From contig OZ243927.1 of assembly GCA_965213925.1 (NCBI GenBank), forward strand, positions 1,600,001 to 1,664,000: DNA of 64,000 bases, written 5' to 3'. Of this stretch, positions 45,379 to 64,000 are shown one piece after another; the stretch's first letter is position 1, and the number at the start of each line of letters is the position of its first letter. The position numbers and the translations under genes were made by a program. The notes beneath the pieces are model-generated. The model searched no databases. It was not told the DNA's origin and saw nothing but the letters and a program-made list of their open reading frames with translations. This DNA comes from Trueperaceae bacterium (GTDB lineage: Bacteria; Deinococcota; Deinococci; Deinococcales; Trueperaceae).

Positions 45379-45594
45379 ATGGCAGACCATCTAAGCAGCG
45401 ACCCGTTGGAGAGTCCGGCAGCCTCGAGGCAGTCCTACAAAATCCCCGAACTCGCTAAGGAACTCGACGCGACCGAGGAGCAGGTCAAAAAATGGATACG
45501 CGAGGGCAACATCGAAGCGATGTCGGATGAGGAGCACGCCGAGTATCACGCGGACACGATCGAGCAGCTCCGCGCCATGCAAAATAGCGGTTAA
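45379..45594 (+). CDS. Small helix-turn-helix protein (excisionase/MerR-like)
   Basis: YKIPELAKEL..TEEQVKKWIREGNIEA; AAGGAGG RBS. Confidence 0.7.
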   Translation: MADHLSSDPLESPAASRQSYKIPELAKELDATEEQVKKWIREGNIEAMSDEEHAEYHADTIEQLRAMQNSG

Positions 45595-45799
45595 ACTCCA
45601 CCTTTAAGACCGGTAGGACAGACGGCGCAGGGACGAATTTCGAACCTTCCCTGCGCTGTTTACGAGATGAGATAGAAGCTCGAGCTTTTTGGCTGTCACA
45701 TCAGAACGCCTGGCGTTCGTATATTTTGCATACTGATGTGAAGAATCCTTGTTGAATTGCCCAACAACTTCTCAAACTCCGCGTGATAGCATCATCTTT

Positions 45800-46609
45800 A
45801 TGTCAATGAGCGTTCAGGCTCCCGAAGAGGATGTCGTTACCGAAGAAGCTATACTAGATGATGAAGTCGAAGTCGCCAACAGAGGCCCCTCCCTCTACGC
45901 GACAGGCTTGATGAAGAAGTACGGCGGTCGCACCGTCGTCAAAGGCGTGGATTTCCGCCTGGAACCGGGCGAAATTGTGGCGCTTTTAGGACCGAACGGC
46001 GCGGGCAAGACGACCTCGTTTTACATGATGGTCGGGTTTGTCAGACCGAACGTGGGGCGCATCTTCTTAGGCGAAGAGAATATTACCACGTGGCCCATGT
46101 ATAAGCGGGCGCGGCGCGGGCTGGGGTATCTGGCGCAGGAGCCGAGCGCCTTTCGCAAACTCTCGGTGCGCGACAACCTCATGGCGGTTTTGGAGTATCA
46201 GAAGCTCAGCAAGCAGGAGCAGGAGCGGCGGGCGGACGAGCTGCTAGCGGAGTTCGGCTTGAGCGCCTTGGCGAACAGCCGCGCGGACACGCTCTCGGGT
46301 GGGGAGCGGCGGCGCTTGGAAATCGCCCGCAGCCTCACCATTGACCCCGCCTTTATCCTCCTGGACGAGCCCTTTACGGGCGTAGACCCCAAGTCGATCC
46401 GCGAGATTCAGCTCCTCATCGCGGATTTGCGCGAGCGGCGCGGGCTGGGCGTGCTTTTAACCGACCACAGCGTCCGCGAAACGCTGGCCATTGCCGACAG
46501 GGTTTACCTCATGTTCGACGGCAAAGTGCAGTTCGAGGGAACGCCCGAAGCGTTCGCTGAAGACGAGAACGTGCGTACCTACTACTTAGGCAGTGACTTT
46601 CAGCTCTAA
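45800..46609 (+). CDS. lptB: LptB-like ABC transporter ATPase
   Basis: [46 protein letters not shown]. Confidence 0.9.
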
Positions 46610-46657
46610 TTGTGCTAATTTCTAAGGGTTATTTAACGCTCTGAAAGGCTCCGCACT

Positions 46658-47971: not shown

Positions 47972-48138
47972 CACGAAGTCTGTATGGCCGGATGTAAAGC
48001 GCGGCGAAGCCACCGAACCATCTTCCCGCGCCACTCGAGCCACGCTGCTTAGCATCCTGGTTCGTTAAGGGGTGACGCCCTTGCCCCGCGAAAATAGCGC
48101 CGCGCACAAACTTGTCCGCGCTCAGATTGCGCTATGCT

Positions 48139-48360
48139 TAGCATTTGTAGGTATCTTTGATGCACCTGTCAAAGATACCCGAGCGGAAAAGAGCCTTTAG
48201 CATAGGTGAAGCACATAGTGCTTTGAGCTTCGCTCTGACCTGTGAGGTAGCATCTTTGAATCTATGGGCGTTGACGTAATGTGCCGTGTACACCGGCTAA
48301 AGGCTTCTCTGCGAGTACCAACAAACGCTCTCAGTGTGTCAATAACGGATGCAAATGCTA
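48139..48360. ncRNA. Candidate structured RNA or leader, unassigned
   Basis: Nested complementary segments; see findings. Confidence 0.3.
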
Positions 48361-48398
48361 GCTAAAGGGGTATATCTAGGGCATTCGAAAGGAGAACG

Positions 48399-49250
48399 AT
48401 GCAGTTTTCTATGGTGAATGGTGAGATCGTCCAGGCGTCCAAAGCGCAGCTTCACGTGAGCGACTTGGCGCTTTTGCGCGGCTACGGGCTTTTCGACTTC
48501 TTCCGCATTAAAGAGGGCGTGCCCCTCTTTTTGGAGGACTATTTAGCGCGGTTTTACCGCTCGGCGGAAAAGCTCGGCCTAGACGTGCCTCTTTCGAAAG
48601 ATGAACTAGAAAGCCTCATCTTCAAACTGCTAGACGCAAACGGCGAGCGTGATTCGAACGTGCGGCTGCTCCTCACGGGCGGTTACTCGGACGACGGTTT
48701 CACCCCGGCCGAGCCGAACCTAGTCGCGCTGCAACACGCGCGCAAAGACTACGACCCCAAACTCTTCGAAGAGGGCGCGTCGCTTATTACACACGAATAC
48801 GTGCGCGACCTCCCCGAGGTCAAGTCCATCAACTACGCCACCGCCGTGCGGCTCATTCCCAACATGAAGCGGGCGAACGCGGTTGAGGTGCTCTATCACG
48901 ACGACGGCAATGTTGCAGAAACCTCGCGCGCGAATATCTTTATTGTCGATCAAGAAGGTACGCTCATCACACCCGCCGAAGGCATCCTAGAAGGCATCAC
49001 GCGCAAGCGCATCTTAGAGTTAGCGGAGGATATGGCGGTGGGGGTGCGGGCGGTGAGTTTAGACGAGGTGATGGGGGCTCGAGAGGTCTTTATCACCAGC
49101 ACGACTAAAGGGGCAATGCCTATCTCTGAAATCGACGGACAAACGATTGGCGAGGGTCGCGCGGGCGAAGTGACAAAGCGGCTCGGTGAGAGGTTCGGTG
49201 AGCGGGTTGAGAGGTACGTTCGGGCTCATCAGCTGGCTGCGACAAGCTAG
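48399..49250 (+). CDS. Aminotransferase class IV (D-amino acid/branched-chain/PabC-like)
   Basis: RGYGLFD, VKSINY, ETSRANIF, ILEGITR, EVFITST. Confidence 0.92.
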   Translation: MQFSMVNGEIVQASKAQLHVSDLALLRGYGLFDFFRIKEGVPLFLEDYLARFYRSAEKLGLDVPLSKDELESLIFKLLDANGERDSNVRLLLTGGYSDDGFTPAEPNLVALQHARKDYDPKLFEEGASLITHEYVRDLPEVKSINYATAVRLIPNMKRANAVEVLYHDDGNVAETSRANIFIVDQEGTLITPAEGILEGITRKRILELAEDMAVGVRAVSLDEVMGAREVFITSTTKGAMPISEIDGQTIGEGRAGEVTKRLGERFGERVERYVRAHQLAATS

Positions 49251-49321
49251 GTTAAGCTTAGGTCGCTATCCATCCCCAATGCTCTCACTGAGTAGGGTGT
49301 TAGCCGTGAAGGGGTACAGAA

Positions 49322-49348
49322 AGAGGCTCGAGCTATTCTCGAGCCTCT
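49322..49348. terminator. Hairpin terminator downstream of tRNA-Met
   Basis: AGAGGCTCGAG-CTATT-CTCGAGCCTCT. Confidence 0.7.
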
Positions 49349-49355
49349 AAAGAGT

Positions 49356-49432
49356 TGGTAGCGATGGAGAGACTTGAACTCTCGACCTCACGATTATGAG
49401 TCGTGCGCTCTAACCAGCTGAGCTACATCGCC
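49356..49432 (-). tRNA. tRNA with CAT anticodon, probably elongator tRNA-Met
   Basis: GGCGATGTAGCTCAGCTGGTTAGAGCGCACGACTCATAATCGTGAGGTCGAGAGTTCAAGTCTCTCCATCGCTACCA; full cloverleaf and encoded CCA. Confidence 0.95.
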
Positions 49433-49750
49433 GTGCACCACGCGCTTTATCCGTTTCGTGTAACCACTTGCCCTCACGACTAGCGGGCTCACGATTGTCG
49501 AGTATAGCCCATAACGCCAGCAGTAGACAAGTGGTTTTGCATCATCCACCGCTCAGCAGGTCAGCGCCCTTGGTTTGTTTGGTTTGTATTTCCAACTGAC
49601 CCGTTCAAGCCTCACCACCGGGGCACTTGCTCGGCTCCCTGGCGGTCGCTTGAGGTCGCAAGTACCCCGCTTCCGCTCCCGCTGGTCGCTCCAGTCGCTC
49701 CTTAGTCCATTAGGGTAGGGGTACTAGCCTAAGCCATGCTTGTTCACTCC

Positions 49751-49774
49751 GGCACACGAATATATTCGTGTGCC
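49751..49774. promoter_or_regulatory. Perfect 24-bp palindrome, candidate operator or recombination site
   Basis: GGCACACGAATATATTCGTGTGCC. Confidence 0.5.
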
Positions 49775-49851
49775 CTTTTTGCGTCCCTCACGAACTTTCC
49801 GACTTTACAAGACCCTGCCAATTGGGGTAGGCTCTAGGCCCAGGAGGAACC

Positions 49852-50160
49852 ATGCGGCGACGTTATCTTCGTCTTCACCCCAAGGTCAGAGCGCGTCGGG
49901 TAGGAGCGGTGTCTACTCCCAGACAGCCTACGCTACTCACCCCTTCGCCTGCGCCAATCTCCGCGCATTCAAGGACGTCTACTACTCGGAACAAGTACCT
50001 CAAAGCCTATGTGTCTCGCACCATGCACGAGCGCTTTCACGCCGAAGCCGCACGTCAGAACAAGACTATGAGCGCCTTGCTCCAGGAGCTAGTTGGCGAT
50101 TATCTAACCCAAATTGAGGTCCAAGAGCGCTGGTCAGCCCTGCGTAGCGCACCCAGATAG
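49852..50160 (+). CDS. Ribbon-helix-helix (CopG/ParG-like) DNA-binding protein
   Basis: AGGAGG RBS; KYLKAYVS-RTMHERFHAEAARQNKTMSALLQELVGDYL. Confidence 0.65.
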   Translation: MRRRYLRLHPKVRARRVGAVSTPRQPTLLTPSPAPISAHSRTSTTRNKYLKAYVSRTMHERFHAEAARQNKTMSALLQELVGDYLTQIEVQERWSALRSAPR

Positions 50161-50221
50161 GTCCTACCGGCCCCATACAGCCTCGACATAGCAGGACGAC
50201 ATTACGAAAGGATCTAACATC

Positions 50222-50560
50222 GTGAATGACGCTCGAGAAATCAAGCGGCTGCAACGCCAAATTCTCGACTTGCAGGGAGACTTGAGTAGGCTGAAAACTA
50301 CCGTTGACACCCAGAAGTACCGCACCGAGAGCGACTTCGACACTCAGACTTACCTGATCAGCAAGCTGGAGCAGGACCTAAAGTGGTTGAAGCGTAAAGG
50401 TGATAGCTCCAGCCAACTATCTTTGGCTACCTCCTCTCGAGAGGTTAGGGGCATTTTTCAACACTTACCGGACCCTTTGCCCTTCTTCGCCGGAGTTCTG
50501 CTCGGCGTTGTGATTGCGAGCCTGCTTTTCATATTCGACATCGCTGCACGCGCCGCCTGA
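50222..50560 (+). CDS. Hypothetical coiled-coil protein with C-terminal TM helix
   Basis: AAGGA RBS; heptad pattern then FFAGVLLGVVIASLLFIF. Confidence 0.6.
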   Translation: MNDAREIKRLQRQILDLQGDLSRLKTTVDTQKYRTESDFDTQTYLISKLEQDLKWLKRKGDSSSQLSLATSSREVRGIFQHLPDPLPFFAGVLLGVVIASLLFIFDIAARAA

Positions 50561-50740
50561 GTTGCGCTTTGCCTGCCCGGATCGAGATGATACCCCCGCT
50601 AGGACTCAAGCCGTGAGAGATGGGCGCACGGCTTCCAAGAACCTTGAGCCCATTCGCCAAAAGAAAAGCAAGTCCAGTGAGCAACAAGAAGAGTAGGTAG
50701 TTTGAGTGTTACGCGCGATGAGTGGTGGAGCCTACGACAT

Positions 50741-51604
50741 CTACGAGATCAGTTTGGAAGGGTGTGCCGCCAGGTCATTAGCGATCTGGCGGGCGATGAT
50801 ATGCGCGTCCTCATAGTCAAGCGTTTCGATCCCGTCGTCACGCAGCAGGTGGAGCAGTTCGTCCGTCTCGCCCGCTTCTACTAGATTGGAGGGATAGTAG
50901 CCAAGCACGGCGAACTTGGCGTCTTGGTAGACGGTATCCAAGCCCGAGGCGCTCCGCACGTCCCGCGCGGTCATGCGGTAGCTCTGCACCGTCCCGGAAG
51001 TTTTCTCGGTGCCCGTAAAGGGGATGAGCTGGTAGTAGTGCATAACGTCGTTCTGATACGCGAAGTCGATTTTAGGTGCAGGGACAGGCGGCTTGACGTC
51101 CTGCTTGACCTCAGGACGCTCGAAGAGCCCAGCCTGTCTAAAGACGCTGCTAACCTGCTTGCGCATGGCTTGGCGCGTGACGCGCAGTCTCTTCGTGCCT
51201 TCTTCAGGGACCGCGACGAACTGGTGAAACAGCTTCTCCAAGGTTTCCTCTGGGTTGGAGGTCAAGGCGGAGCGCGGCTCGCTGAGTTGGATGTTGTTGT
51301 GATAAAAAGCTCTCAGTCTATGAAGCCCTGAAGGGGTCAGGATGCCTTCTGGAGAGACTCCCTCTTCGATAAAACTATTCAACTGCTTATGGTCGAACGC
51401 ATATCTGAGTTTCGTTAGCGCGTGCCTCACGAAATGCCCATCCCAGTTGCTGAGCGCCTTAGCCCTGCTGTCATCGCCGAAGCTCGGCAGGTAACGCAAC
51501 CCTTGAAACCTCGTCTCAGGGCACACGAGAATAACTCCCACGTTGACAAACTCTTCGCGGAGCATGTTGGGTATGTAGCGGACTACTGCGTATAGTGCAC
51601 GCAT
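50741..51604 (-). CDS. DUF3037 domain protein
   Basis: YAVVRYIPNMLREEFVNVGVIL, IQLSEPR, LEKLFHQFV. Confidence 0.88.
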   Translation of the reverse strand: MRALYAVVRYIPNMLREEFVNVGVILVCPETRFQGLRYLPSFGDDSRAKALSNWDGHFVRHALTKLRYAFDHKQLNSFIEEGVSPEGILTPSGLHRLRAFYHNNIQLSEPRSALTSNPEETLEKLFHQFVAVPEEGTKRLRVTRQAMRKQVSSVFRQAGLFERPEVKQDVKPPVPAPKIDFAYQNDVMHYYQLIPFTGTEKTSGTVQSYRMTARDVRSASGLDTVYQDAKFAVLGYYPSNLVEAGETDELLHLLRDDGIETLDYEDAHIIARQIANDLAAHPSKLIS

Positions 51605-51736
51605 CCTCTTCACAACCACTATGTTACCTTTGGTGTCCTTTTGCAACCTCCTCGCCAGGTGTTCAGGCAGTGCCCTGACCCTCTGAGATAGGTAGTTTAG
51701 CAGGGCTTCTGCGTTGGGAAACCGCGCCGATTCAGC
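51605..51736 (-). pseudogene. Probable 3' remnant of a HipA-like kinase gene
   Basis: Startless frame AEALLNYLSQRVRALPEHLARRL directly upstream of DUF3037, where the partner kinase normally ends. Confidence 0.4.
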
Positions 51737-52201
51737 TCATACAACATCGAATGATAGGTTTATCTTGAGTGTTACCGTCTCTGTTTGCTTTGCGAGACCC
51801 TCATCGGGCTCGGGCATTTCTTGGTGATTCTCTTCCAATGGGGGACCTTCGTTTTCGGCTGCATCAAGCTCTTCCAGAGCAGCGGAGATGTTGGCTTCGG
51901 TGGCTTTGCCATACACGATAACCCCGAACCTTATGACATCGGTGATGTCTTGCATGGAGTTGTAGTCGGGGCGTCTCGTGGCGTAGGCGCTCACAGCGGC
52001 GATCATGGTGACTGTAAGCTGACGCGCGTCGAGCGGTACGAGTCCAGGTGTGTTACTGTTCAAGGTCCAGCCCGCGAGGTTGAGGGCATAGTCTGCTGCA
52101 AAGGCTTCTAGCGGCTCTAAGTCCATGAGTTCCACAACTTGTCTAGCATTCTGAGTACGTTCCATATTTATATTCCCTTTCCAAAAGCTGATCTCAGACA
52201 A
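51737..52201 (-). CDS. Hypothetical protein
   Basis: 154-aa ORF; a later ATG (MERTQ) follows AAAGGGA. Confidence 0.6.
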   Translation of the reverse strand: MSEISFWKGNINMERTQNARQVVELMDLEPLEAFAADYALNLAGWTLNSNTPGLVPLDARQLTVTMIAAVSAYATRRPDYNSMQDITDVIRFGVIVYGKATEANISAALEELDAAENEGPPLEENHQEMPEPDEGLAKQTETVTLKINLSFDVV

Positions 52202-52468
52202 CTCCAGTCATCCTTGGGTGCGGCTTTTTCTGGCTGTATTTCGCTGCATCTCCGCAAGTGCACACGGCGGGGCTACATAACCTCTTTTCCGGGCTTCGAC
52301 CTTATCCAACCTACATCTTCAAGTGTTTCGAAGCCGGTCATGGCGCTTGTGTTTGCTAGAGGCACGTTCGTGTAGGTCGAGCCAAACCTGTTTACGCTAT
52401 GCTTCCCTGGCTGCTCCTTCGTCGGCGCACGCGAGGTGGCTGTATAGGTTCTATGGAGCCGTGCCCTC

Positions 52469-53725
52469 TTACGCAGCCTGTCGCACCACAGCCCGCTCCC
52501 GCATCGCTAAAAGCCACTCTATCTCCGTTCGCCGAGCCCCCGAGTCCGGTTCTCCGCGCTGATACGCCAACGCCCAGTCAGCCCGCTCGACGGCTTCGTG
52601 GTAGCGCCCCTCAGCGAGCAGCAGCGCGACCTGCGCTTTGACTTGTTCCCTCTCGTCGCCGTTCAGTTCCGCCCCTCGCCCGAAGTGTACCTGCGCGGTT
52701 TCTTGATCACCGAGGTGGAAGGCGTAGAAATAGGCGGCTTCAAAGTGGAGCGTCGGGTTGAACACGGGGCTGATTGCTTGGGCGGCGGTAAGCGCCTTAT
52801 CTAAGGCATCCTTTGCAGCCTGCACATCTCCGCTGTCCAGGGCGTAGAAGTACCCCGAGATGAGCCCAGGAAAGGCTTCTGCAGGGTTGCGTTCCGGGTC
52901 GAACTGGTCGTAGGGCGCAAGCACACGCAGGTCCCAATCGCGCGGTCTGACAGAACCAAAATAGAGACCCTGGTAGCGGTAGCTCTGCTGTAACCTCTCC
53001 ACGAACGCTGGGTCACGTAAGTTGAGGAGTTGGAGACCATCGAAGAGGAAGTTGCCTACCTTTAGCGGCGCGAGATTACCTAACGCCTGCCACGCCGCGA
53101 ATGTGCCGATGGTCGTCAGCAGAAGCGCAGTGTACAGCTCCCAAGCGTAGAGTTCGTAGGGCTCGAAAGCAGCCAAACCGAGCGCCCGGTGAGCCCCGAA
53201 CGCGGTGACTGCCAAGACGAGTGAGGCGAGCGGACCTGCCAAGAGGATGAGAGCATACCTGCGGCGGAAGTGCGGGTCGTCGGGGTTCTCGGTGTGGAGG
53301 TGAGCCGCGCCGCTCGGCTTGACTCCCGCCCAGTTGTACTTGACCCTGACGCCGCGTTTGTGTGGCTCAATGTGAAGAGGTCCCACCCATATGTACAGCG
53401 TCTTGAAGCCGACCAAGCGCCCCGCTAGGGCGTGTCCCAACTCGTGCACGAAGGTCAGCAGCCATAAGAGGGGCACAGCGAGCAGAAAGGCAACGGCGAC
53501 CCCTTGGCTGTTCAATGCGCCCAAATAGTCGGTGAAAGGCGCGAAGTCGAGGTCGAGGAAGCCGCCAAGCATCCCCAAGAACAAAAAGAGCGCCAAGAGG
53601 ATAAGAACTACGCGCCCACGACCATCTTGTGCCGCGCTTGGTGGTCGGGGTTGCGGCGCGGGCACGTTCTCAGACCCCGTAGGAGTAGGTAAGTCGGTCG
53701 TTTGCGCTTTGCGAGACTGGTTCAT
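52469..53725 (-). CDS. M50 family membrane metalloprotease with TPR-like C-terminus
   Basis: HELGH, LAGPLAS, NLAP...DG. Confidence 0.85.
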   Translation of the reverse strand: MNQSRKAQTTDLPTPTGSENVPAPQPRPPSAAQDGRGRVVLILLALFLFLGMLGGFLDLDFAPFTDYLGALNSQGVAVAFLLAVPLLWLLTFVHELGHALAGRLVGFKTLYIWVGPLHIEPHKRGVRVKYNWAGVKPSGAAHLHTENPDDPHFRRRYALILLAGPLASLVLAVTAFGAHRALGLAAFEPYELYAWELYTALLLTTIGTFAAWQALGNLAPLKVGNFLFDGLQLLNLRDPAFVERLQQSYRYQGLYFGSVRPRDWDLRVLAPYDQFDPERNPAEAFPGLISGYFYALDSGDVQAAKDALDKALTAAQAISPVFNPTLHFEAAYFYAFHLGDQETAQVHFGRGAELNGDEREQVKAQVALLLAEGRYHEAVERADWALAYQRGEPDSGARRTEIEWLLAMRERAVVRQAA

Positions 53726-54461
53726 AGAGATTCCCGCTTAACTCTAGGGCAGCCGAGAGGTTTAAGCGCGTGAAACGGTCACGCCAACTTGCCTCTTCCC
53801 CTGTGAGAAATCGGGCTTGTTAGTTTCTAAGCGCTGCTCAAAAGTACCCCCCTCCCCTCGTAGTTCACGAAGCGGCAGGGGTTTAGCGCCGTGCGCCCGC
53901 TGGCTGCGTTTTATCTCGAGAAACCCTCTCGTTCCCCTACAGACGTTGCCCCGTAACCTCTTTTTGCGCAGGAGTGCAGAACCGCCCCCCTCCGGGTAGG
54001 TCTAAATCGTAAGCCGTTTTGGGCAAGCGCTTTGTCTAAACCAGCCTCGACGTGTCCCCCTGGGGTGATGAGTTTTGTACCGGAGATGCCGACTAATTTC
54101 TCCCCTTGTCTGCCCTTACTTGATCGTCTAAATTGCCCTGAACCGGACCACGCTTGCCCCCACCGCGAGCTTAAACCATGCCCACGCTGTCTTGGCAGCC
54201 GTGCTCTGCCACTGCCTCCACTCATTACGAGTGAAGGAGTTTTACATGAACCATACAGCCCGCTTTTACCGCCACCTCTTCACGCCCATTCAGTCTCTGT
54301 CCTGCCGGATGCTCACGCCTGTTACTCCGTTTAAGAACGCGCAGGAAGCGACAACTCTTCCCATAGGTGGATCACCTTGCCAGCCAGCGCCAACAAGTGA
54401 ATTTCACACCCCTACCGCGCCCCCTGGCTTACACTCAGTTTGGACTATTACCGAGGCAACA

Positions 54462-55520
54462 ATGCACCAAGAATCTCGCCGCCGCACGATCTACCTCATC
54501 GCCATCTCGATTGGGCTACCCACTTTGCTCGTCGTCTGGTGGCTTCAGCACGCTATAGACCCCTTCGTGCGCGTGGCTCACCCCCTGCTCATGGGTTATC
54601 TCGCCTGGGCTGTCATCGCCCTGAAGCGCGAGCGCGTGCCCCTAAAGGTCATCGAACAAGCGACCTTCTGGGTCAACGTAGCCTTCTGGTATAGCAACTT
54701 CGCCTACAGCCTCATCAGCGGTCACACCTTTACGGTGGGCTGGGCTGAGGTCATGAGCGTCACCATGCTCAACTTCTTTATCCTGGCTGTCCTGTCGCAC
54801 TTGGTCTTCTCGACGCGCTTTGGAGGACGGGTCAACTTGGGGCTCCTGGGTCTCTCCGCCCTCATCGGCGTGGGCGGGCTCCTGCCGGACGTGATGCAGG
54901 GGCAGCACCAACAGGAACTCACCTGGCTCATCCACTTCGAACTCGCCTTTGCGGTGCTCATCGGTTTCATCTACGTCGTCGCCAAGAGCAAAGACGATTA
55001 CACCGAAGCCGCACTCCACGCCCAAAACCTGCACACGATGGCGTATGAGGACGCGCTCACGGGGCTACCCAACCGCCGCCGGGTCGAGGGCGAGCTGGAC
55101 TGGCAAATCGAGATCAGCGGGCGCTATGGACGCCCCCTGTCGCTCATCAGCTTCGACCTGGACAAGTTCAAGAGCATCAACGACACGTTAGGTCATGCGG
55201 TGGGCGACGAGGTGCTCACCTCGGTGGCTAGGCTCGTCAAGCCCCTGCTGCGAGCGAGTGACACCTTGGGGCGTTGGGGCGGGGAGGAGTTCGTCATCGT
55301 CGTGCCGGAGTCAGACCTAGAACACGCCTCTGCCTTTGCCGAGCGCATCCGCACTGCCATCCAGCACGCCCAGCATCCGCACGGGCTTGGCGTTACCGCG
55401 AGCTTTGGGGTGGTGACGTGGGAGCCAGGGATGAGTGCTCAGGACCTCTTGGAAGTGGCGGACAGGCGGCTCTACCAAGCTAAGGCGGGTGGGAGAAACC
55501 GAGTGGCAGTGGGTGCTTGA
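54462..55520 (+). CDS. Membrane-bound diguanylate cyclase
   Basis: About 6 TM segments; DALTGLPNRR, DLDKFKSINDTLGH, RASD I-site, GGEEF; GAGG before ATG 54462. Confidence 0.93.
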   Translation: MHQESRRRTIYLIAISIGLPTLLVVWWLQHAIDPFVRVAHPLLMGYLAWAVIALKRERVPLKVIEQATFWVNVAFWYSNFAYSLISGHTFTVGWAEVMSVTMLNFFILAVLSHLVFSTRFGGRVNLGLLGLSALIGVGGLLPDVMQGQHQQELTWLIHFELAFAVLIGFIYVVAKSKDDYTEAALHAQNLHTMAYEDALTGLPNRRRVEGELDWQIEISGRYGRPLSLISFDLDKFKSINDTLGHAVGDEVLTSVARLVKPLLRASDTLGRWGGEEFVIVVPESDLEHASAFAERIRTAIQHAQHPHGLGVTASFGVVTWEPGMSAQDLLEVADRRLYQAKAGGRNRVAVGA

Positions 55521-55635
55521 CGCGCCCCCTGTGCGACGTCAACTTGCCCCGGTGAGGACCTCATCACAGGCGGGCTTACGACCCCGCTTTTCCCCGTCCT
55601 CGCCGGGAGAAGTCACATAGCGCACCTTGATCCCC

Positions 55636-55804
55636 GGTTTGCGCAGCAAACCCGCTACGCAGTAGCGGAACACGTCGGGCAAGGTTCCAATCTCGAGACC
55701 AGTCGGAGTTTGTAAGCCCTGTTTAGGGGCTGTTACCTCTCCACAACCCGCTGTACTGAATCCTGCCGGGAGTGACGCCTTCGGCGAATAGGCTTCGCCT
55801 ATTC
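55636..55804. other. Two pairs of GNA-triloop hairpins on opposite strands, candidate origin or priming signal
   Basis: GGTTTGC-GCA-GCAAACC and CCGCTAC-GCA-GTAGCGG (plus strand); CGCC-GAA-GGCG and GAATAGGC-GAA-GCCTATTC (minus strand). Confidence 0.45.
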
Positions 55805-56106
55805 CATCAATTGACCGGGAAGAGTGGGCTCAACCCTAGCCTAAACCAAACACCCCAATCGGTAGATCAACTCGATCATGCCGGGAGGGAGGAAGCAGGT
55901 ATATAAGCCCTAGCTGGTGGGGTAATAGCAGGATGAAACTCGCCCCCCTTGGAGTTCTTAACCTCTACCCCTGGGGAGTCTATAAACCCCAGCCCCCTCT
56001 ACAGGCATGGTTCTTACCCCCTGAAGAGCGTGAGGTCGAGAAGAACCGACAGGGACGAGGAAAATTGCCTTTTAGTTGAGGCTTGCCGACTTACAACCCG
56101 CGAAGT

Positions 56107-57702
56107 TTACTCTATGAGACCCCCTTCAAGTTCGGTGTGAATGTCCATCTGAGCTGCGGTGTCTTTAACGACCTGCTTAATCTTAGATTCCCACTTGGTT
56201 ATGCTTTTCGTCTTGTAGCTCACCGTGAAGCCATCGAATTGGTAGAGCGTGACTTTGAAAACCTTTTTATTTGGCTCGGCGAGCTGATAAACCGGCGCAA
56301 GTAGTCTCAACTCGGTCTGTTGGGCTCTTCTGGCGAGCACCTGCTTTGCGCTCTTACGTGTGTTGTCACCTAGATATCTGGATTCGATACCGAAGCGCTC
56401 TGCTAGGTTTGACGAGCAAAGCTCCTGCATAATCTTCTCGATCTCTTCTTCGCGAGCATCGAAGAGGTCTTGAATGATCGGAATCGCCTCGAATTTTTCG
56501 TAAAGACTATCGGGTTGACCAGAAGACAACAAGGCGCGTTTGACGTTGTGCTTCTCAGCACCAAAGACTAGCGCGTAGATAGCGGTTTTCAAATCAGGTT
56601 TGATAGTCTGGAGGTCTACTCCAAGCTCGTCCGCTAGATAAGCCCAGGCTGAACCCTGCGTTTCTAGCAGGACTTGAAGGTCCGTGACGCCCCACTTCTT
56701 CGCTACGATAGCAAGCTGAGCCGATTTCAGGTCGTACTCGTACCAGCCACGTGTGAGTTGCCGCCGAACATCTTTCCTAATACTTAAAAGGGAGGGATAA
56801 CTTCCGTACAGCCGCGCTGTCTTCTCTACCGTGTGGATCATCGGCTTCGGGCACCCTAGGATGAAGAGGAGTTGCCCCCAAGCCTGATGCTGGGAGCGTT
56901 CAGTCCTACCCATACAGTTTGCTAGGTGTTGAATTGCAGTCTCGCGGTTCTTCTTCACGATGTCAGAGAACACTTGGATATCGAGCCCGTTCTGGTACTC
57001 GACAATCATCTCGCTATCTGACTTGAGCTTTTCAGACACAATTTCCCAATCTGAGCTAAAGCACGGCATAGGCTTTACAGAGCTGTAAGGGGCAGACAAA
57101 TCTTCTAAATTGGTAAGTTTCTGAGCTGGGAAGAGTGATTGAAGATGGCTGATGGTAGAGGATGAGTCTGCTATGTCGACATGCAAGGGTATCGACGCTG
57201 CCTGCTCGAAAACCGCTCCGCGCCAGTCTGCTTGAATCTGGCGCGTGACCTTCTTGCCGGTCGAGAGGACTACCTCATCCTCTTTGCCCTCTTTAAGGTC
57301 CCGCCACATCAGCTCGCGTAAAGCCTCTGCCTCTGGACCGAGCCCTGTGTTTTCAACCTCACGCGCTTTACCTTGCTTGTACCTTTCATGTGTATGGTCA
57401 GTATACTCGAAGCCCGGCACAACATCCCTTTTGAAAGCCTCTAAGAATCTATAGCCCACGTAGTTTGAATTCGCCTTTTTGCCCTCAAACGAAGCGAGCT
57501 TCTCCCTGGATATCACGATATTGCCCAGCTCATCTTCATCGCCTATTTCATCGCTATCTTTTTCTTCTTTATTGTCAAACTTAGACGGAAAAAGCAAATA
57601 CATCATTAGATGCCAGTATGCCGGGTTCTTCTCCAGCCCTGAATAGGCTTGCACAACTGCTTCTCTAAATCTTCTGCTGCCCGTAGTCCTCGCGTAGCTC
57701 AT
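56107..57702 (-). CDS. Divergent family A DNA polymerase-like protein without exonuclease domains
   Basis: TARLYG, motif A YDLKSAQL, motif B KTAIYALVFG, AQQTE, motif C LYQFDGF in canonical order. Confidence 0.7.
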   Translation of the reverse strand: MSYARTTGSRRFREAVVQAYSGLEKNPAYWHLMMYLLFPSKFDNKEEKDSDEIGDEDELGNIVISREKLASFEGKKANSNYVGYRFLEAFKRDVVPGFEYTDHTHERYKQGKAREVENTGLGPEAEALRELMWRDLKEGKEDEVVLSTGKKVTRQIQADWRGAVFEQAASIPLHVDIADSSSTISHLQSLFPAQKLTNLEDLSAPYSSVKPMPCFSSDWEIVSEKLKSDSEMIVEYQNGLDIQVFSDIVKKNRETAIQHLANCMGRTERSQHQAWGQLLFILGCPKPMIHTVEKTARLYGSYPSLLSIRKDVRRQLTRGWYEYDLKSAQLAIVAKKWGVTDLQVLLETQGSAWAYLADELGVDLQTIKPDLKTAIYALVFGAEKHNVKRALLSSGQPDSLYEKFEAIPIIQDLFDAREEEIEKIMQELCSSNLAERFGIESRYLGDNTRKSAKQVLARRAQQTELRLLAPVYQLAEPNKKVFKVTLYQFDGFTVSYKTKSITKWESKIKQVVKDTAAQMDIHTELEGGLIE

Positions 57703-57840
57703 TGTAAGTTCTCCGCTGTCGTAGATTCATTGACCTCAAAGCCCCACATCACCACAAAGCCCCAGACTCAGCAGTTAAAAACTTCTTGCGAGAGGGAATT
57801 CTCTATACCAAAGCCCACCCATGCGTTAAACTTCTCAAAG

Positions 57841-58122
57841 ATGTCAGCTCAACTCACGACCAACCACGCTAAGATCATCAACGAACTCTGGCAAGCCGCC
57901 GTCAACCTACGCGGCTCAATAGAACCTGCCGACTACAAGCGCTACGTCCTGACGATCATCTTCCTGCGCTTCTTGTCACTGGGCTACGAGCGCAGGTGTG
58001 AGGCGCTTCAAGCGCTGACTGACGACCCCGAGAGCGAGTACCACACGACCGCCCCGGAGGTCGCTGAGAGCATCTTAGAAAACGAGACATTCCTCACGCG
58101 ACATAACTTTTCTCGTGTGTAA
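57841..58122 (+). pseudogene. hsdM: Truncated type I restriction-modification M subunit, N-terminal fragment
   Basis: ELWQAAVNLRGSIEPADYKRYVLTIIFLRFLS; stops after 93 aa without methyltransferase motifs. Confidence 0.85.
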
Positions 58123-58185
58123 CAATACGCTTATTTAACCGGGCTGAAGGGCGTTCTTAGAGGTCTTTGCACCGGCAGTGGAGTT

Positions 58186-61113
58186 TTGACCTTGGCTCAT
58201 GAATTTCAACCAGGCATGATCATTCGGGCGCGGGGCAGACTGTGGCGCGTAGACAGCGTTGACGCTTCGACCGTGACCGGCACGAGCCTCGACAGCCCCG
58301 ACGCTAGATCGCGCCGCTTTTTCGTCCCCTTTGAAGGGCGCGGCATCACGGTTGCGCAGATGGACCTTCCGCCAGCGGTGGAGGGCGACGCGGTCCTGCA
58401 CGACCTCTTCTTACGCGCGACGCGCATGACGATGATGCACGGCACCGCGCCCCTCGCGAGCCTCCAGCGCTCGCGCGTGATCCCCACGAACTACCAGCTT
58501 GTCCCGGTCATGATGGCGCTCGACATGCCCCGCGTGCGTATCCTGATCGCTGATGACGTAGGGCTCGGCAAAACCGTCGAGGCTGGGCTTATCACCTCGG
58601 AACTTCTCGCGCGTAAGCAAGCTGAGCGCGTGCTCGTTCTCACCCCTGCGAACCTCAAGGATCAGTGGCGCGAAGCCTTTTCACACTTTTTCCACCTCAA
58701 TCTCGAGTCGCTAAGCACCCCTGAGATTCGTAAGCTCGGCAGGCGGCTACCGCCCGGCGCGAACCCCTGGTCGCACTTCCCCTTCGTGGCGGCGAGCATC
58801 GACTACGCCAAGCAGGACAGCGTCAAGAACCTCATCTTGAGCCAGAGCTGGGATTTGGTCATCGTCGATGAGGCGCACGGTTCGGCTGCGCCTACGGCGG
58901 GTGCGAGAGGTTCAGGTAACAAAGACCGCTACGAGTTCGTTCAGGACCTCGCTCGCCGCTGCCGCCATCTGGTCCTTGCCACCGCGACCCCGCACAATGG
59001 CTACACCGCCTCGTTCGCGAGCCTTTTGCGGCTCCTCGACGAGACGTATTCCCCGGAGGGTCGTCTCGAACAACCCCTGCAACTCGTGGACGGCGACCTG
59101 CACGAGCCGATCATCCGCCGCCGCCGCGCCGAGCGTCACGTGATTCAGCGCCGCCGCCAAGACGTGCAGAACTGGTTTGTCAAAGAGAATAAGCGCTCGC
59201 CCTTCCCGGAGCGCAACAGCCGCGAGGTGTTTATCGAGCCGAGCCGCCCCGAGCTTGAGGTCTACCACGCCTTCCAGAGCTACCAGCGCTTCATCTTCGA
59301 GGGTAAGGAGAGCAAAGACGTGCACGTGCTGGCTCGCTGGATGGTCATGCACTTTTTGCGCCGCGCGACAAGCTCACCGAACGCGCTCAAGGTGTCTTTG
59401 CGCAAGCGCACCGAGAAGCTGAAGCGCAAACTCGAACGCCCGGACGAGGGCGACGAAAACGAGCGAGTCAGCAGCCCAGTCGAGCAGGCGCTCAAGGGCG
59501 CGACCCTCGATGCGGGCGACACCGACCTCTTCGCAGAGGAAGAACTCGACGACAAGCTCGACAAGCTGAGCATCTTGCAGCGCTCGGAGATAAGGGCGGA
59601 GATAGGCTTTTTAGAGGGCATCTTAGACGCCGTGAACCGCTGGCGACCCGGCTCGGACACGAAGCTCAAAAAGCTCAAGAGCCTCCTGAACGACTACAGC
59701 GAGTTGGGGCGCTATCCCCGCACCATCATCTTCACCCGCTACCTCGACACCATGACCTATTTAGCGAGCGAACTCGCCAAAGAGAAGGTTTTCGACATCT
59801 TCACGGTGGACGGGTCGCTGAGCGACAAAGCGCGCGCCGAGCGCATCCGCGACTTTGGACGCGCCGAGCGCGGCTTGCTGATTGCAACCGACGCGATCAG
59901 CGAAGGGCTCAACTTGCAGTTCGTCGCCAACCAGCTCGTCCACTACGAGCTTCCCTGGAACCCGAACCGCTTGGAGCAGCGCAACGGGCGGGTGGACCGC
60001 TTCAAGCAGCCCGAGGCGGAGGTGCGCATCCGCACCCTGATCAACGAACGCTCCTTCGACCTGGTGGTGTTTCGCAAGCTCATCGGCAAGGCGCAGCGTA
60101 TCCGCGAGGCTTACGGCTTTTTGCCCCCCTACTTCAGCGATGAGAAGTATTCCGAAGACCTCATCGGCGAGTTGATCGACGAGAACCTCACCGAACAGCG
60201 TTTCTTGCAGCCCGGTCTCTTCAACCAAGCGTCTCCCGAAGAGATTACCGAAGAGGAGCGGCTCGCCGCCGACAAGATGCGAGAAGAGTCGTTCTACGGT
60301 CACGCGACCTTTAACCTCCCGGACGTCGAGGAGCGCCTCCAGGCGTCGCAAGACGTCATCGGCAGCCCGAAAGAGGTCGAGCAGCTTGTCGTGCAGGCAC
60401 TTAGATACCTCGACTGGCGCGTGGACGAGCGGCGCGGCGTCTACCACGTCCAGCGCGGCGGTGCTGAGCCTATCGCCGGAGTCCCTGACGACTTGGGGCT
60501 CATCACCTTCGACGCGGACGTCGCGGTTATGAACCCAGACGTCAATCACCTAGACATCGCTCACCCCGTTGTGACGCGGCTGCTGACCTACATCAGGCGC
60601 ATGAGCTACGGCAGCCTCAAAGACGCACGCACGGCGGTCGTGACGCGGCTACTGCCTGCGGGCACCCCGGCGCACGCCGTGTTCCACACCCGCGCCCGCT
60701 ACATAGTCGGGCGAAACGGTGGAGGAGACGGCAAGCAGAGCAGTAGGCAAGGCAGCAAGCAACTCGTCGAGGCGCTCGTACCCGTCGGCGTGGACCTCAT
60801 GACGGGCGAGGTTGCGCCCCACGCGCTCACCCTCCAGCTTTTGACGGCGGAGCCGCGCCCTTCGACCTTTACAGGGGCGTCCGTGCGGACGTTCATCGAC
60901 AAGGCGCTCCACCTCCCCAAGCTGCGCGACATCGTCTCGGCGGCGGTGCAGCGCAAAGGCGAGGAACTGCGCGAGGAGCGCAGAAAGTTGCGTGCCAAAC
61001 TCGAGGAAACCTACCCCAGCCAGTCCACCTGGTTAGAGGGCATCGACGAGATTCACCCAGCCGCCCACGATATCCTGGCGCTGAGCGTCGTCGTCCCGGC
61101 GAGGCGGAGCTGA
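58186..61113 (+). CDS. SNF2-family helicase, DISARM DrmD-like
   Basis: RILIADDVGLGKTVEAG, DEAH, TATPHNG, SEGLNLQ, LPWNPNRLEQRNGRVDR. Confidence 0.9.
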   Translation: MTLAHEFQPGMIIRARGRLWRVDSVDASTVTGTSLDSPDARSRRFFVPFEGRGITVAQMDLPPAVEGDAVLHDLFLRATRMTMMHGTAPLASLQRSRVIPTNYQLVPVMMALDMPRVRILIADDVGLGKTVEAGLITSELLARKQAERVLVLTPANLKDQWREAFSHFFHLNLESLSTPEIRKLGRRLPPGANPWSHFPFVAASIDYAKQDSVKNLILSQSWDLVIVDEAHGSAAPTAGARGSGNKDRYEFVQDLARRCRHLVLATATPHNGYTASFASLLRLLDETYSPEGRLEQPLQLVDGDLHEPIIRRRRAERHVIQRRRQDVQNWFVKENKRSPFPERNSREVFIEPSRPELEVYHAFQSYQRFIFEGKESKDVHVLARWMVMHFLRRATSSPNALKVSLRKRTEKLKRKLERPDEGDENERVSSPVEQALKGATLDAGDTDLFAEEELDDKLDKLSILQRSEIRAEIGFLEGILDAVNRWRPGSDTKLKKLKSLLNDYSELGRYPRTIIFTRYLDTMTYLASELAKEKVFDIFTVDGSLSDKARAERIRDFGRAERGLLIATDAISEGLNLQFVANQLVHYELPWNPNRLEQRNGRVDRFKQPEAEVRIRTLINERSFDLVVFRKLIGKAQRIREAYGFLPPYFSDEKYSEDLIGELIDENLTEQRFLQPGLFNQASPEEITEEERLAADKMREESFYGHATFNLPDVEERLQASQDVIGSPKEVEQLVVQALRYLDWRVDERRGVYHVQRGGAEPIAGVPDDLGLITFDADVAVMNPDVNHLDIAHPVVTRLLTYIRRMSYGSLKDARTAVVTRLLPAGTPAHAVFHTRARYIVGRNGGGDGKQSSRQGSKQLVEALVPVGVDLMTGEVAPHALTLQLLTAEPRPSTFTGASVRTFIDKALHLPKLRDIVSAAVQRKGEELREERRKLRAKLEETYPSQSTWLEGIDEIHPAAHDILALSVVVPARRS

Positions 61114-64000
61114 TGGCGCACGCGCTCAACGCCATCTCTGTATCGGGCAACCTGCTCAGCAACGAGTTTTTGCACACCAGCACGCAGCCCGGCGGGAAGT
61201 TCCAGGCGTTCGACCCGAGCACCTTCGACCCGAGCTGGAAGCGCGAGGCGGACTTCGAGGCGGCGCTGAGCCGCGCCTGGGAAGACCTCAAGGACCGCTT
61301 CGACGAGATTTACCCCAGCCTGCCCTACATGGACCTCCCGGCGGTACGGAGGGGGTGGACGCTGCCCCTCTTGCGGACGCTCGGCTTCGCCCCGGCGTAT
61401 CAAAAAGCGCGGCTCAAGCTCCCGCGTTTGAGCGAAACCTTCCCCATCAGCCACCGTGGATGGGGGACCGACGACGCCCCCGTCATGCACCTGCTCTCCC
61501 CTCAGAGCGACTTAGACAGCAAGCCCGCCGAACGCGGCGCGAAGAGCCCGCAGATGATGGTGCAGACCTTCCTCAACCAGGACAGCACGCAGTCGTGGGG
61601 CATCTTGTCGAACGGCGCGGTGCTGAGGCTCCTCCGGGTCTATCACCACACGAGCCAGGCGGGTTACGTCCAGTTCGACCTCGTACAGCTCTTCTTGACC
61701 CGCGACTACGACGAATTCAGGAGCCTCTACCGCCTCGCACACGCCAGCCGCTTCGTGCCGCGCGGCACGACCTTAGTCGAGGCGAAAGCTGAGTCGGAGG
61801 ACAAGTTAGAGGATGAGGGCGAGGACGAAAACGCGCCCGCCGAAGCGAAACGCCTCCCGGTCTGGCTCGAGGTCTGCTACGAGCACGCCCGCAGCGAGGG
61901 CAGCCGAGCTGAGGCGAGCCTCCGCAAAAACGTCATGGAAGCGCTTATCGTGTTGGGCAACGGTCTCCTAACCCCAGGGCTGCGCCAGCGCCTAATCGAG
62001 CGCCCCGCCGACATGGATATCTACTACCGCCAGCTCCTCCGGGTTGTATACCGCTGCATCTTCCTGCTCTTCGCCGAGCAGCGCGGGCTCATCCGCACCG
62101 ACTCGCCCTTCGCTGAGGTCTACCACGACGAATACAGCCTCACCGCGCTGCGCAACCTCGCCGAGGAGCAGCGCCTAGTGCGCGACCACGGGTCTGATTT
62201 GTGGGAGCGGCTGCTCCTCACCTTCGAGCTGGCTCGCGTCGGCAACGAAGACCTGGGCGTTCAAGCCTTTAACGGCGACCTCTTCGACGCCGAAAACCTC
62301 TACCTCGTCTACGGCAACGTGTTCGACCCGGCGCTGCGCAACACCCGCGACGACCTCCCCCGGCTCACGAACCAAGAGACGCTGCGCTTCATCGAATGCT
62401 TAGGCTTCACCACCGTCAACGGCACCTTGGAGCGCATCAACTACCGCGACCTCAAAGTTGAAGAGATCGGGCACATCTACGAAGGGCTCCTCGACTTCGC
62501 GCCGCACCTCGCCGCGCAAGACCTGATGTCGGAGAGCGGTCCCGTCGCCAAGGGCGCGTTCTACTTAGACGAGCGCAGCACGAGTCGCAAGACGAGCGGC
62601 TCCTACTACACCCCGAAAGAGCTGGTGCAAGAGATCATCAGCCGAGCACTGCTACCCGTCATCGACGAGCGCCTAGCGGCGGCGGACAATACCTTACAGG
62701 CGCAAGAGGAGGCGCTCCTCAGCATCAAAGTCCTCGACCCCGCCTGCGGCAGCGGCGCGTTTCTCATCGCCGCCAACGACGCGCTCGCCAAGCGCCTCGC
62801 CGATTTGCGCTGGCAAGCGGCGCGCGAAGAAGCGCTTAGGAGTGCCGCCGACACCTTTCTTTTCGAGGGGCGCGTAGGCGCAAGCGCCGCCAACCCCTCG
62901 CAGACCCACGAGCGGTACTACGAAGAGGTCCAGAAAGCCAAGCGCGACGTGCTCGCGAGCTGCATCTACGGCGTAGACCTCAACGACATGGCAGTCGAAC
63001 TCGCCAAGGTGAGCCTCTGGATAGACGCCGCCAGCAGCGGCAAACCCCTCAACTTCCTAGACCACCGCATCCGCTGCGGCAACTCCCTACTCGGTGCGCC
63101 GCTGAACTTTATCTACCTGGGCATCAACCCGGACGCCTACAAGGGACGCGGCGACGCTGACAAAGACACCCTAGCGGAGGTCCGCAAGGTCTTCAGCCCC
63201 AAACAGTACGCGGAGCGGCACAAGAGGTTAGACGAAGAGGGGGCGCTCTTCGACCTCAAGATTCAGCTCCCCGACTTAGGCGCGGTGCGCGAGGACTCCG
63301 TGGAGGGCGTGCGGGAAAAAGAGGAACGCTACGAGCGCCTACGCGCCCAAGACGCCCTCGCCAAGTGGCAACTCGTCGCCGACTACTGGACGAGCGCCTT
63401 TTTCTACCCCGTGAAGCCCAACACCGGGACCATCCCCAACCAGAAGAGCCTCAACCTCATCGTCCAGGCGCTAGAAGAGCGCACCACCGACCAGCTCAAA
63501 CAGCTCACGCCCCTCTCCCCGCAGGTGCTCGGGCACATTGCCGCTCTAAAGCACCAGTACAACTTCTTCCACTACTGGTTAGAATTCCCCGAAGCGTTCT
63601 TTGACAGCGCAGGCAACCTCAAGGCGCAGCGCGGCTTCGATGTGATTGTGGGCAACCCGCCCTGGGAAGTTGTACAGCCCGAAGAGAAGAAGTGGTTTGC
63701 GGGACGCAATGAGGAGATAGCCGAAGCGTCGGGGGCGAAGCGGAAGAAACTCATTAAAAAGCTAGAAACCGAAGACCTCGACCTTTACGAAAAGTGGAAC
63801 GAGCACGCTACAGAGACTCACGCGACTGCGAACTTCGTCAAGGCGTCCGGGCGTTACCCCACGTTGAATACTGGCAAGGTCAACCTGTATGCGGTATTCG
63901 CGGCGGGGAATAAAGACCTGACGAGTTCTACCGGACGCACTGGCATCATCGTGCCGTCGGGCATTGCCACCGACAACACGACTAAAGACCTCTTCAGGGA
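61113..64000 (+). CDS. Large N6-adenine DNA methyltransferase (Eco57I/type IIG-like, DrmMI-like); 3' end outside the window
   Basis: Absent from the ORF track; ATG overlaps the helicase [38 protein letters not shown]. Confidence 0.9.

Follow-up and report, generated by a model that had tools for sequence, protein, structure and literature searches.

A minimal family A polymerase gene in a tRNA-Met island of a Trueperaceae bacterium, probably serving replication of the island

What role does a compact polymerase gene play when it lies beside defense genes on a mobile island? We asked this question for P0001, a gene of 531 codons (positions 56107-57702, minus strand) in a window of DNA, meaning the whole stretch of 64,000 nucleotides that was analyzed, from a Trueperaceae bacterium (GenBank assembly GCA_965213925.1, contig OZ243927.1, positions 1,600,001 to 1,664,000). 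Positions below are those of the window unless given as genome positions. A first-pass annotation made from the letters alone had described a family A polymerase-like gene in a defense-bearing island and had proposed two roles, an uncharacterized replicase or primer-independent polymerase of a mobile element, or a nucleotidyltransferase linked to the neighboring defense genes. The gene lies inside a ~32-kb segment at a tRNA-Met gene, and we put at roughly 60% the probability that it encodes the replication polymerase or primase-polymerase of this island, an enzyme of the TV-Pol kind. On this best reading, the polymerase would be a backbone gene of a tRNA-integrating island and the adjacent DISARM-like system its cargo; the functional part is drawn, by analogy, from genomic context and from one assayed relative.

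The open reading frame (ORF) is open on the minus strand only, the plus-strand reading being full of stops. All six motifs listed by the first-pass annotation were found in the order it gave, TARLYG at residues 295-300, RKDVR at 309-313, YDLKSAQL at 323-330, KTAIYALVFG at 372-381, AQQTE at 460-464, and LYQFDGF at 486-492. The gene is also more AT-rich than its surroundings, as had been claimed, with 50.7% and 49.3% GC in the two 1-kb bins at 56-58 kb versus 57-65% in the adjacent bins. Curated libraries did not name the protein: it had zero matches in Pfam at E ≤ 10, DNA_pol_A (PF00476) and every exonuclease or nuclease family included, and PHROGs, PADLOC, and NCBIfam were all empty at E ≤ 1. 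Comparison with the sequences of the PDB at E ≤ 10 gave nothing usable. A canonical polA is present elsewhere in the same genome.

We built an AlphaFold (AF2) model of the full protein from a 15-sequence alignment (predicted local distance difference test, pLDDT, 81; predicted template modeling score, pTM, 0.79), in which low confidence was limited to residues 45-59 and 175-225. Foldseek returned 154 matches in the PDB at E ≤ 1e-3 (best E 1.1e-7, template modeling score 0.38), and family A DNA polymerases made up 50 of the 50 matches listed. In a second structure search of 48,161 chains, independent of Foldseek, the top 20 rows were all PolA DNA polymerases or T7-like RNA polymerases (RNAPs). 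The Klenow fragment reached Z 18.0 (root-mean-square deviation 3.9, 307 residues aligned, model residues 162-531), Pol nu 17.6, the apicoplast polymerase 17.1, Pol theta 16.7, and T7 DNA polymerase 14.9; yeast mitochondrial RNAP scored 13.0, T7 RNAP 12.4, and the 404-aa N4 RNAP II 9.5, with the first unrelated chain at Z 7.1.

The polymerase fold spans the C-terminal ~370 residues. Secondary structure, conservation, the Klenow match, and motif mapping delimit a polymerase core at residues 218-531 (positions 56110-57048, minus strand), in which the model places two long thumb helices (218-238 and 242-262), a beta-hairpin whose strands (289-291 and 298-300) bear R297, palm strands holding D324 and D490, and fingers holding K368, K372, Y376, F380, and G381. 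At the level of sequence, the 15-sequence profile matched human Pol nu in the O-helix region (E 0.0043) and Pol theta weakly in motifs A and B (E 0.19-0.91); a weak match to DpoZ was also seen, and the same profile picked one unrelated protein at E 0.62. Aligned by hhalign to eight Pol I polymerase domains from this genome and its relatives, the family alignment gave a probability of 93% (E 3.4e-7, 230 columns). Since the family link appears only through profile-profile or structure comparison, the protein belongs to a distant branch and is not a canonical PolA. We regard the family A palm, fingers, and thumb fold as secure. The first-pass annotation had staked its fold on a palm/fingers prediction and on the conservation of two Asp residues among homologues, and both were observed.

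Conservation was read from 110 of 159 sequences, obvious fragments and forms longer than ~560 aa being left out. Seven residues are invariant in these 110 homologues (R297, D324, W353, Y376, E464, D490, and G491), the two catalytic Asp among them, and K368, K372, G381, Q461, R313, and R417 are conserved in at least 90%. The six motifs do not arise by chance, as the hhalign mapping to Pol I sets them on motifs A and C, the O-helix, and the arginine of TGR: R297 falls on the Arg of TGRLSS, D324 and Q329 on the Asp and the Glu of DYSQIELR, K368, K372, Y376, F380, and G381 on R, K, F, Y, and G of the O-helix, and D490 and G491 on the Asp and the Glu of QVHDE. The O-helix thus departs from Pol I in a Lys for Arg and in a Phe (Tyr in some members) for Tyr. 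The steric-gate Glu is replaced by Q329 (Gln or His in the 15-sequence alignment), and the motif C Glu position is the invariant G491; we take these glutamates to be E710 and E883 in Klenow numbering. The family consensus of motif C is QHDG, with His-Asp as in Pol I, and this copy has Phe-Asp.

The N-terminal domain (residues 1-170, positions 57193-57702, minus strand) is a compact alpha/beta domain, weakly winged-helix-like, with an acidic loop of low confidence at residues 45-59. Residues 1-175 folded alone from a 90-sequence alignment gave a confident compact domain (pLDDT 90, pTM 0.84). Foldseek found nothing for it at E ≤ 1e-3 (best E 0.043), and the wide structure search gave a best Z of 5.3. 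These weak matches (Z 3.9-5.3) were nearly all winged-helix DNA-binding proteins, namely MarR-type and OmpR-type regulators, ORC2, and the iteron-binding initiators Pi (Z 4.4), RepE (4.1), RctB (4.0), and RepA (3.9). The modeled domain is probably a DNA-binding winged helix, which at such scores is a lead and not a finding. Among the matches listed, 50 from each of two structure searches, there was no nuclease of the DnaQ or FEN type, in keeping with the earlier claim that the protein lacks an exonuclease. Between this domain and the core lies an insertion of low confidence (residues ~171-226, positions 57025-57192, minus strand; pLDDT below 50 at residues 175-188 and 190-225), where the other 14 sequences of the alignment have a gap. 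Upstream of the start codon, by 31-62 nt, sits a 14-nt direct repeat (positions 57733-57764, two copies 18 nt apart, 93% alike). This pair is possibly a putative operator or binding site, although a two-copy short repeat may be due to chance; a repeat search for iterons around the gene yielded only short two-copy repeats.

Enzymes of this build were predicted computationally in 2008 as TV-Pols, minimal family A relatives of 400-600 aa that never carry a nuclease (Iyer, Abhiman and Aravind 2008, Biol Direct 3:39, PMC2579912; our statements on this and the other cited papers concern the parts of each source that were available). Their core consists of a two-helix thumb, a beta-hairpin with an absolutely conserved Arg, two palm Asp, and RxxxK, and both primase and polymerase activity were predicted for them (PMC2579912). 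For a subset with an extra N-terminal domain, the neighboring genes include a lambda-type integrase, gamma-delta resolvase, or transposase, and restriction-modification operons occupy the same hot spots (PMC2579912). P0001 shares the core (helices 218-238 and 242-262, R297, D324 and D490, K368xxxK372), the size range, the lack of a nuclease, and the additional N-terminal domain. It differs in its fingers, which read KxxxK instead of RxxxK; in its N-terminal domain, modeled as alpha/beta and winged-helix-like and predicted to be all-helical in TV-Pols (PMC2579912); and in the D5-like helicase, which is neither fused here nor adjacent in the window.

The one assayed relative is CCPol of SCCmec, placed among the TV-Pols by Bebel et al. 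(2020, eLife 9:e55478, PMC7581432), who state in the available part of their text that no other TV-Pol had been assayed. CCPol alone extends DNA and RNA primers with deoxyribonucleoside triphosphates (dNTPs), but de novo priming requires the small protein MP, with which it acts as a dNTP primase (PMC7581432). Like the CCPol-MP-Cch2 set of SCCmec (PMC7581432; Rice 2023, PMC10061031), P0001 is an exonuclease-less A-family polymerase of an element that has its own recombinase. In contrast to CCPol, which primes with the small OB-fold protein MP and works with the DUF927-type helicase Cch2, neither partner is present in the window, and among the homologue loci surveyed below a small gene downstream is not a constant feature (5 of 22 loci), while a DUF927 gene adjoins in only 1 of 29; conversely, the available description of CCPol (PMC7581432) offered no counterpart to the N-terminal winged-helix-like domain. 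Beyond the 2008 prediction and this SCCmec enzyme, our literature search found nothing on such enzymes. The label "uncharacterized" given earlier calls for some qualification, since TV-Pols have been described and CCPol assayed: the kind was predicted in 2008, and a large branch of it is still unnamed in protein libraries.

This branch is widespread. A word-indexed protein search found 15 family proteins, the query included, and an exhaustive search of 50%-identity clusters found 1026 at E ≤ 1e-3, 707 at E ≤ 1e-10, and 118 at E ≤ 1e-30, nearly all of the best 150 of the 1026 being 430-530 aa long. Within the phylum, the family profile located the gene in 26 of 364 genomes, this one counted (24 of 125 genomes in one family, 1 of 127 others in the family of the window), and in neither of two congeners. 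Three family members searched by tblastn had no match in 50,697 deposited phage genomes and a single one in 72,556 plasmids, which lies integrated in a megaplasmid of Deinococcus peraridilitoris and is annotated as 'hypothetical protein'. Copies are broken or split in 4 of the 26 matching genomes (G035, G101, the second copy of G043, and a fragment in G047). The idea that many homologues are pseudogenes was rejected, as several stop-bearing matches proved to be intact ORFs and one an annotated coding sequence.

The first-pass annotation had suggested a neighborhood survey of homologues. We analyzed 29 loci (8 from species-representative genomes, which were scanned with the 15-sequence alignment, 1 from the plasmid, 19 from the same phylum, and this one) by fresh ORF calls and blastp clustering. 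The sole other widely recurring protein cluster was a tyrosine integrase, present in 20 of 29 loci; in 3 others a large serine recombinase takes its place. A tRNA gene adjoins the recombinase in 15 of 27 loci scanned, and a small serine resolvase lies close to the polymerase in 5. In 8 loci only 40-502 bp separate the polymerase from the integrase, cargo intervening elsewhere, and both layouts, the polymerase beside the integrase or at the far end, occur among the 29. These features place the gene in the neighborhood described for the TV-Pol subset, with defense cargo in most loci.

The cargo itself varies. Loci L048 and L050 have a tRNA-Ser, the integrase, the polymerase, and the small resolvase in common at identical spacing and differ in what they carry, GmrSD with HEPN in one and an AAA_15 ATPase in the other. 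Across the loci, the cargo includes type I, III, and IV restriction, the type IIG enzymes MmeI and Eco57I, AlwI together with methylases of the Dam type, McrBC, Mrr, GmrSD with HEPN, DUF4007, DUF499 with DUF1156, AAA_15/AAA_21 ATPases, HerA, and SNF2-NOV_C. The DrmD-like neighbor of P0001 is confined to this locus, with a looser SNF2 and NOV_C combination in L065 and unrelated systems elsewhere. Because the recombinase stays constant across loci, often at a tRNA gene, while the adjoining defense genes change, the polymerase is best read as part of the backbone. The replicase or primase-polymerase half of the original proposal is thus what the survey best supports, with primer independence no more than a possibility.

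In locus L053, the gene immediately next to the polymerase homologue, with the same orientation, encodes a DUF927 protein of 1013 aa (L053 10636-13677). The pairing recalls CCPol-Cch2 of SCCmec and the linkage of TV-Pols with D5 helicases.

The segment that carries P0001 has the layout of such an island. Its left border is an intact tRNA-Met gene (positions 49356-49432, minus strand; ARAGORN), at which the segment missing in the congeners begins. A perfect direct repeat of 279 bp (100% identity in blastn over 279 nt) consists of the 5' 61 nt of the tRNA-Met gene and 218 nt upstream; its left copy lies at positions 49372-49650 and its right copy at genome positions 1681718-1681996, where the tRNA copy is truncated. 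An intact tyrosine integrase gene of 295 aa (genome positions 1680711-1681598, Pfam E 1.8e-31) ends 120 bp before the right copy. The first-pass annotation had seen no integrase, which holds within the window, the gene being 17 kb beyond its end and 23 kb from the polymerase gene. Apart from weak GGDEF similarity, neither of the two congeneric genomes matched window positions 49850-64000 at the DNA level, and in congener G257 the tRNA-Met gene lies ~500 bp from a phosphoketolase gene that is ~42 kb away from it in this genome. The identity of the repeat over its whole length suggests a recent event.

Further observations concern the borders. The repeat overlaps the 5' part of the tRNA gene, and attachment sites usually take the 3' part. 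Beyond each repeat copy, 1.3 kb are 83% alike and another 97 nt 82% alike (window positions 49372-51191 and 53894-53990; genome positions 1681718-1683324), the 1.3 kb comprising a small ORF and a DUF3037 gene that is complete in the left stretch but reduced to a fragment of 126 aa in the right one. This likeness suggests tandem or rearranged related islands and not one clean insertion.

How the enzyme might serve the island can be sketched. The tyrosine integrase would excise the island segment as a circle, and the polymerase, perhaps guided to a site on the element by its N-terminal domain, would bind there and initiate DNA synthesis, presumably from dNTPs and with both catalytic Asp at work. 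Pol I extends a transcript or a nick at ColE1-type origins, and the island enzyme might start in this manner; alternatively, it might prime de novo, like the CCPol-MP complex of SCCmec. The copy would then be finished by the host replisome or by strand displacement.

Islands that shuttle defense systems are usually described by their integrase alone, and a minimal Pol I-fold enzyme is now identified as a likely second backbone gene, which offers a practical marker for finding such defense-carrying islands. Should the enzyme prime or start the replication of excised islands, it would explain how small islands without capsid or relaxase persist and are amplified, and it would provide a compact proofreading-free polymerase or primase for study. 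A bolder version, which we put forward tentatively and would rather doubt than expect, is that a single polypeptide, a winged helix joined to a minimal PolA core, recognizes the origin and primes de novo with no partner and no helicase. Widespread tRNA-inserted defense islands would then be self-replicating elements, the family A counterpart of pipolins, and the family, with more than 1000 clusters and no Pfam, NCBIfam, or PHROGs model, would be a third structural primase class beside DnaG and AEP that works without an MP subunit.

Several results weigh against a replication role. The replacement of the steric-gate Glu by Gln or His and of the motif C Glu by Gly means that sugar choice and chemistry may differ from those of Pol I, and the winged-helix assignment of the N-terminal domain depends on Z ≤ 5.3. 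The window holds no helicase or primase accompanying the polymerase, and DUF927 adjoins in a single locus. Every island is a defense island too, so association alone would equally suggest a defense role. Integrases that are 65-70% identical pair with polymerases only 25-27% identical, and the two genes are therefore not strictly co-inherited, the polymerase either evolving fast or being exchanged. Co-inheritance measured over 17 pairs gave a Mantel r of 0.43, with 3 of 5000 permutations as high; this was driven by three close pairs and related hosts, and we do not take it as support.

To these points is added the occurrence of homologues in viruses. Four IMG/VR contigs (L013-L016) and one prophage (L004) carry a homologue, always among virion genes and with no replication module recognized near it. 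In two near-identical contigs it lies between the large terminase and the prohead protease, in a third near the prohead protease, and in a fourth beside tail genes; in the prophage it belongs to a block of four genes that are oppositely oriented and flanked by lysis and terminase genes. The viral contigs are 31-72% complete by the estimate of the completeness tool. These proteins are 546-575 aa long and match the polymerase core from residue ~230, with unmatched N-terminal regions; across the viral loci, L004, L006, and L007, the match begins only at residue ~222-231. For the homologue between terminase and protease, a portal protein was considered and dropped, the portal genes lying elsewhere in two of the records (G364 and G365) and the matched part being the polymerase core. 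The insertion of a TV-Pol element in a phage genome has been reported (Iyer et al. 2008, PMC2579912), and by analogy such an insertion would explain the homologues among virion genes. Microcystis phage LMM01 is said in the available part of the same paper to carry a TV-Pol (PMC2579912), and our family profile found nothing in it at E ≤ 1, a weak negative, as a permissive first screen had already yielded no candidates, that also counts against the assignment. In the BFVD fold search, helicase/primase/polymerase proteins of virophages came at ranks 38 and 43, where ordinary phage PolAs did at least as well.

A rival idea is that the gene is itself cargo, a stand-alone defense or counter-defense polymerase that would make a nucleic-acid product on infection or hinder incoming DNA; we judge this unlikely, though slightly less so than the other alternatives. 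The reverse-transcriptase-like AbiK, AbiA, and DRT enzymes make a nucleic-acid product on infection. In line with such a role, the gene adjoins defense systems in island loci, its prophage copy occupies a moron-like position in a block opposed to the surrounding virion genes, and it is AT-rich and patchily distributed (in 26 of 364 phylum genomes and in neither of the 2 congeners). It also evolves fast, copies from elements with integrases 30-70% identical being themselves only 21-42% identical, and several homologues, namely the viral loci, L004, L006, and L007, have no match to the region before residue ~220. However, PADLOC recognized nothing in the protein, and an effector such as a nuclease, a membrane protein, or a toxin is neither fused to it nor consistently adjacent. 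Any small same-strand ORF within 400 bp downstream was seen in only 5 of 22 loci and not in the window. The recurring partners are recombinases and not defense genes, and L048 and L050 keep the polymerase with the integrase and the resolvase while the defense cargo changes. The nucleotidyltransferase linked to the adjacent defense genes, the second role first proposed, found no support, as no one defense system recurs alongside the gene and PADLOC does not recognize the protein.

A replicative DNA polymerase also has to be set against a minimal T7-like RNA polymerase that would transcribe the genes of the element, or a primase that would lay RNA primers, which we consider improbable. The recovery of T7-like and mitochondrial RNAPs (Z 12.4-13.0) and of the small N4 RNAP II in the structure search speaks for it, as do the missing steric-gate and motif C glutamates of DNA polymerases. 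DNA polymerases nevertheless scored higher (Z 14.9-18.0), and the polymerases matched at the level of sequence (Pol nu, Pol theta, and weakly DpoZ) were solely DNA polymerases. The position aligned with F762 of Klenow, which stacks on the sugar, holds an invariant Tyr, and we take this position to be Tyr in T7 DNA polymerase and Met in T7 RNAP. Similarly, a bulky Gln or His is kept at the steric-gate position, presumably Gly in T7 RNAP. Telling neither way, the protein is far too short for the promoter-binding N-terminal domain and the specificity loop of T7-like single-subunit RNAPs, and it nonetheless matches the 404-aa N4 RNAP II. An ancestral dual primase/polymerase activity, proposed by Iyer et al. 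(PMC2579912), would suit an RNA-making enzyme, but CCPol, in the available account, favors dNTPs even for priming (PMC7581432).

That the gene is a decaying relic without present function in this genome would agree with the two low-confidence insertions missing in 14 aligned relatives, the broken or split copies elsewhere in the phylum (4 of 26 matching genomes), the truncated hsdM that adjoins it, and the rearranged look of the island flanks, yet it is scarcely probable given 531 open codons that keep all invariant family residues, an integrase that is also intact, and a flanking repeat still identical over 279 bp.

The reading as an island replication polymerase can be compared with other systems. 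Besides the TV-Pol and CCPol work, our literature search on PolA-type integrative elements found nothing nearer than pipolins, tycheposons, and surveys of PolA. The piPolB elements were reportedly described by Redrejo-Rodriguez et al. in 2017. Pipolins (Mateo-Caceres and Redrejo-Rodriguez 2024, PMC11551731) are alike as tRNA-integrated islands of ~20-30 kb with direct repeats, a recombinase, one core polymerase, and exchangeable defense cargo; their primer-independent polymerase belongs to family B, whereas the fold here is family A, so that this island is not a member. Tycheposons (Hackl et al., bioRxiv 10.1101/2020.12.28.424599) have a like layout with the integrase at the tRNA end and exchangeable cargo, but their replication modules are labeled as primases, primase/polymerases, and helicases, and a PolA-fold enzyme is not mentioned in the main text. 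Compared with bacterial Pol I, P0001 has the same fold and catalytic motifs and lacks the 5'-3' and 3'-5' exonuclease domains. Judged by their descriptions, it fits none of PolA1, PolA2/APEX, PolA3, and PolA1-like (Timinskas et al. 2026, PMC12926913), and the available parts of two recent bacterial PolA surveys (PMC12926913; Czernecki et al. 2023, PMC10201439) do not describe the group. It matches no known DISARM gene in PADLOC and does not recur with DISARM genes across loci.

The defense-bearing character of the island, claimed by the first-pass annotation, is borne out by the neighbors of the polymerase gene. Divergent from it runs an operon that begins with a DrmD-like SNF2 helicase of 975 aa (positions 58186-61113, plus strand; PADLOC DrmD E 2.9e-109, Pfam SNF2-rel_dom and Helicase_C), followed by a DrmMI-like N6 methyltransferase of 1427 aa (positions 61113-64000, plus strand; PADLOC DrmMI E 1.1e-92, Pfam Eco57I and N6_Mtase), which extends beyond the window to genome position 1665396. 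Past the window, the operon encodes a protein of 1938 aa, whose best PADLOC matches are DruE and which unites DEAD, Helicase_C, and MrfA Zn-binding (DUF1998-type) domains, as well as two UvrD/GajB-like helicases, an ORF of 248 aa, and a NERD protein. Its gene content departs from that of a textbook DISARM.

Between the polymerase gene and the DISARM-like operon lies the remnant of a type I methylase, a truncated HsdM N-terminal fragment of 93 aa counted from the ATG at 57842 (positions 57842-58122, plus strand; Pfam HsdM_N E 9.7e-11 on ORF 57649-58122, with PADLOC methyltransferase matches as well). A C-terminal fragment of a type I R subunit (T1RH-like_C, E 2.1e-36) was found 30 kb off at genome positions 1687296-1688039, and in locus L060 an intact HsdM-HsdS pair adjoins the homologous polymerase. 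With these fragments here and the intact pair in L060, a type I system may have been displaced by the DISARM-like cassette.

On the other side of the polymerase gene, a DUF3037/PDC-M66B protein (positions 50741-51646, minus strand; Pfam, and PADLOC PDC-M66B E 1e-14), an ORF of 154 aa (within 50741-55520), an M50 peptidase (52469-53725, minus strand; Pfam), and a GGDEF protein (54192-55520, plus strand; Pfam) may form another cargo module.

Contigs from four sequencing runs were also aligned to positions 44001-64000, which were covered completely in one run only, probably the source of the assembly. Runs X4 and X5, of the same species label, covered little beyond the tRNA gene and are uninformative on presence or absence. 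Run X1 contains a contig of depth 3.7 that connects position 55904 to 57872, with 99 letters on its shorter side, skipping 1967 nt that include the entire polymerase gene, with small indels also at 55845-55852. This contig may come from a related strain without the polymerase gene or with a diverged copy. Finally, short stretches of ~85-170 nt at positions 44748-44920 and 48190-48360 match dozens of sites in both congeners at 75-98% identity and look like a dispersed intergenic repeat family.

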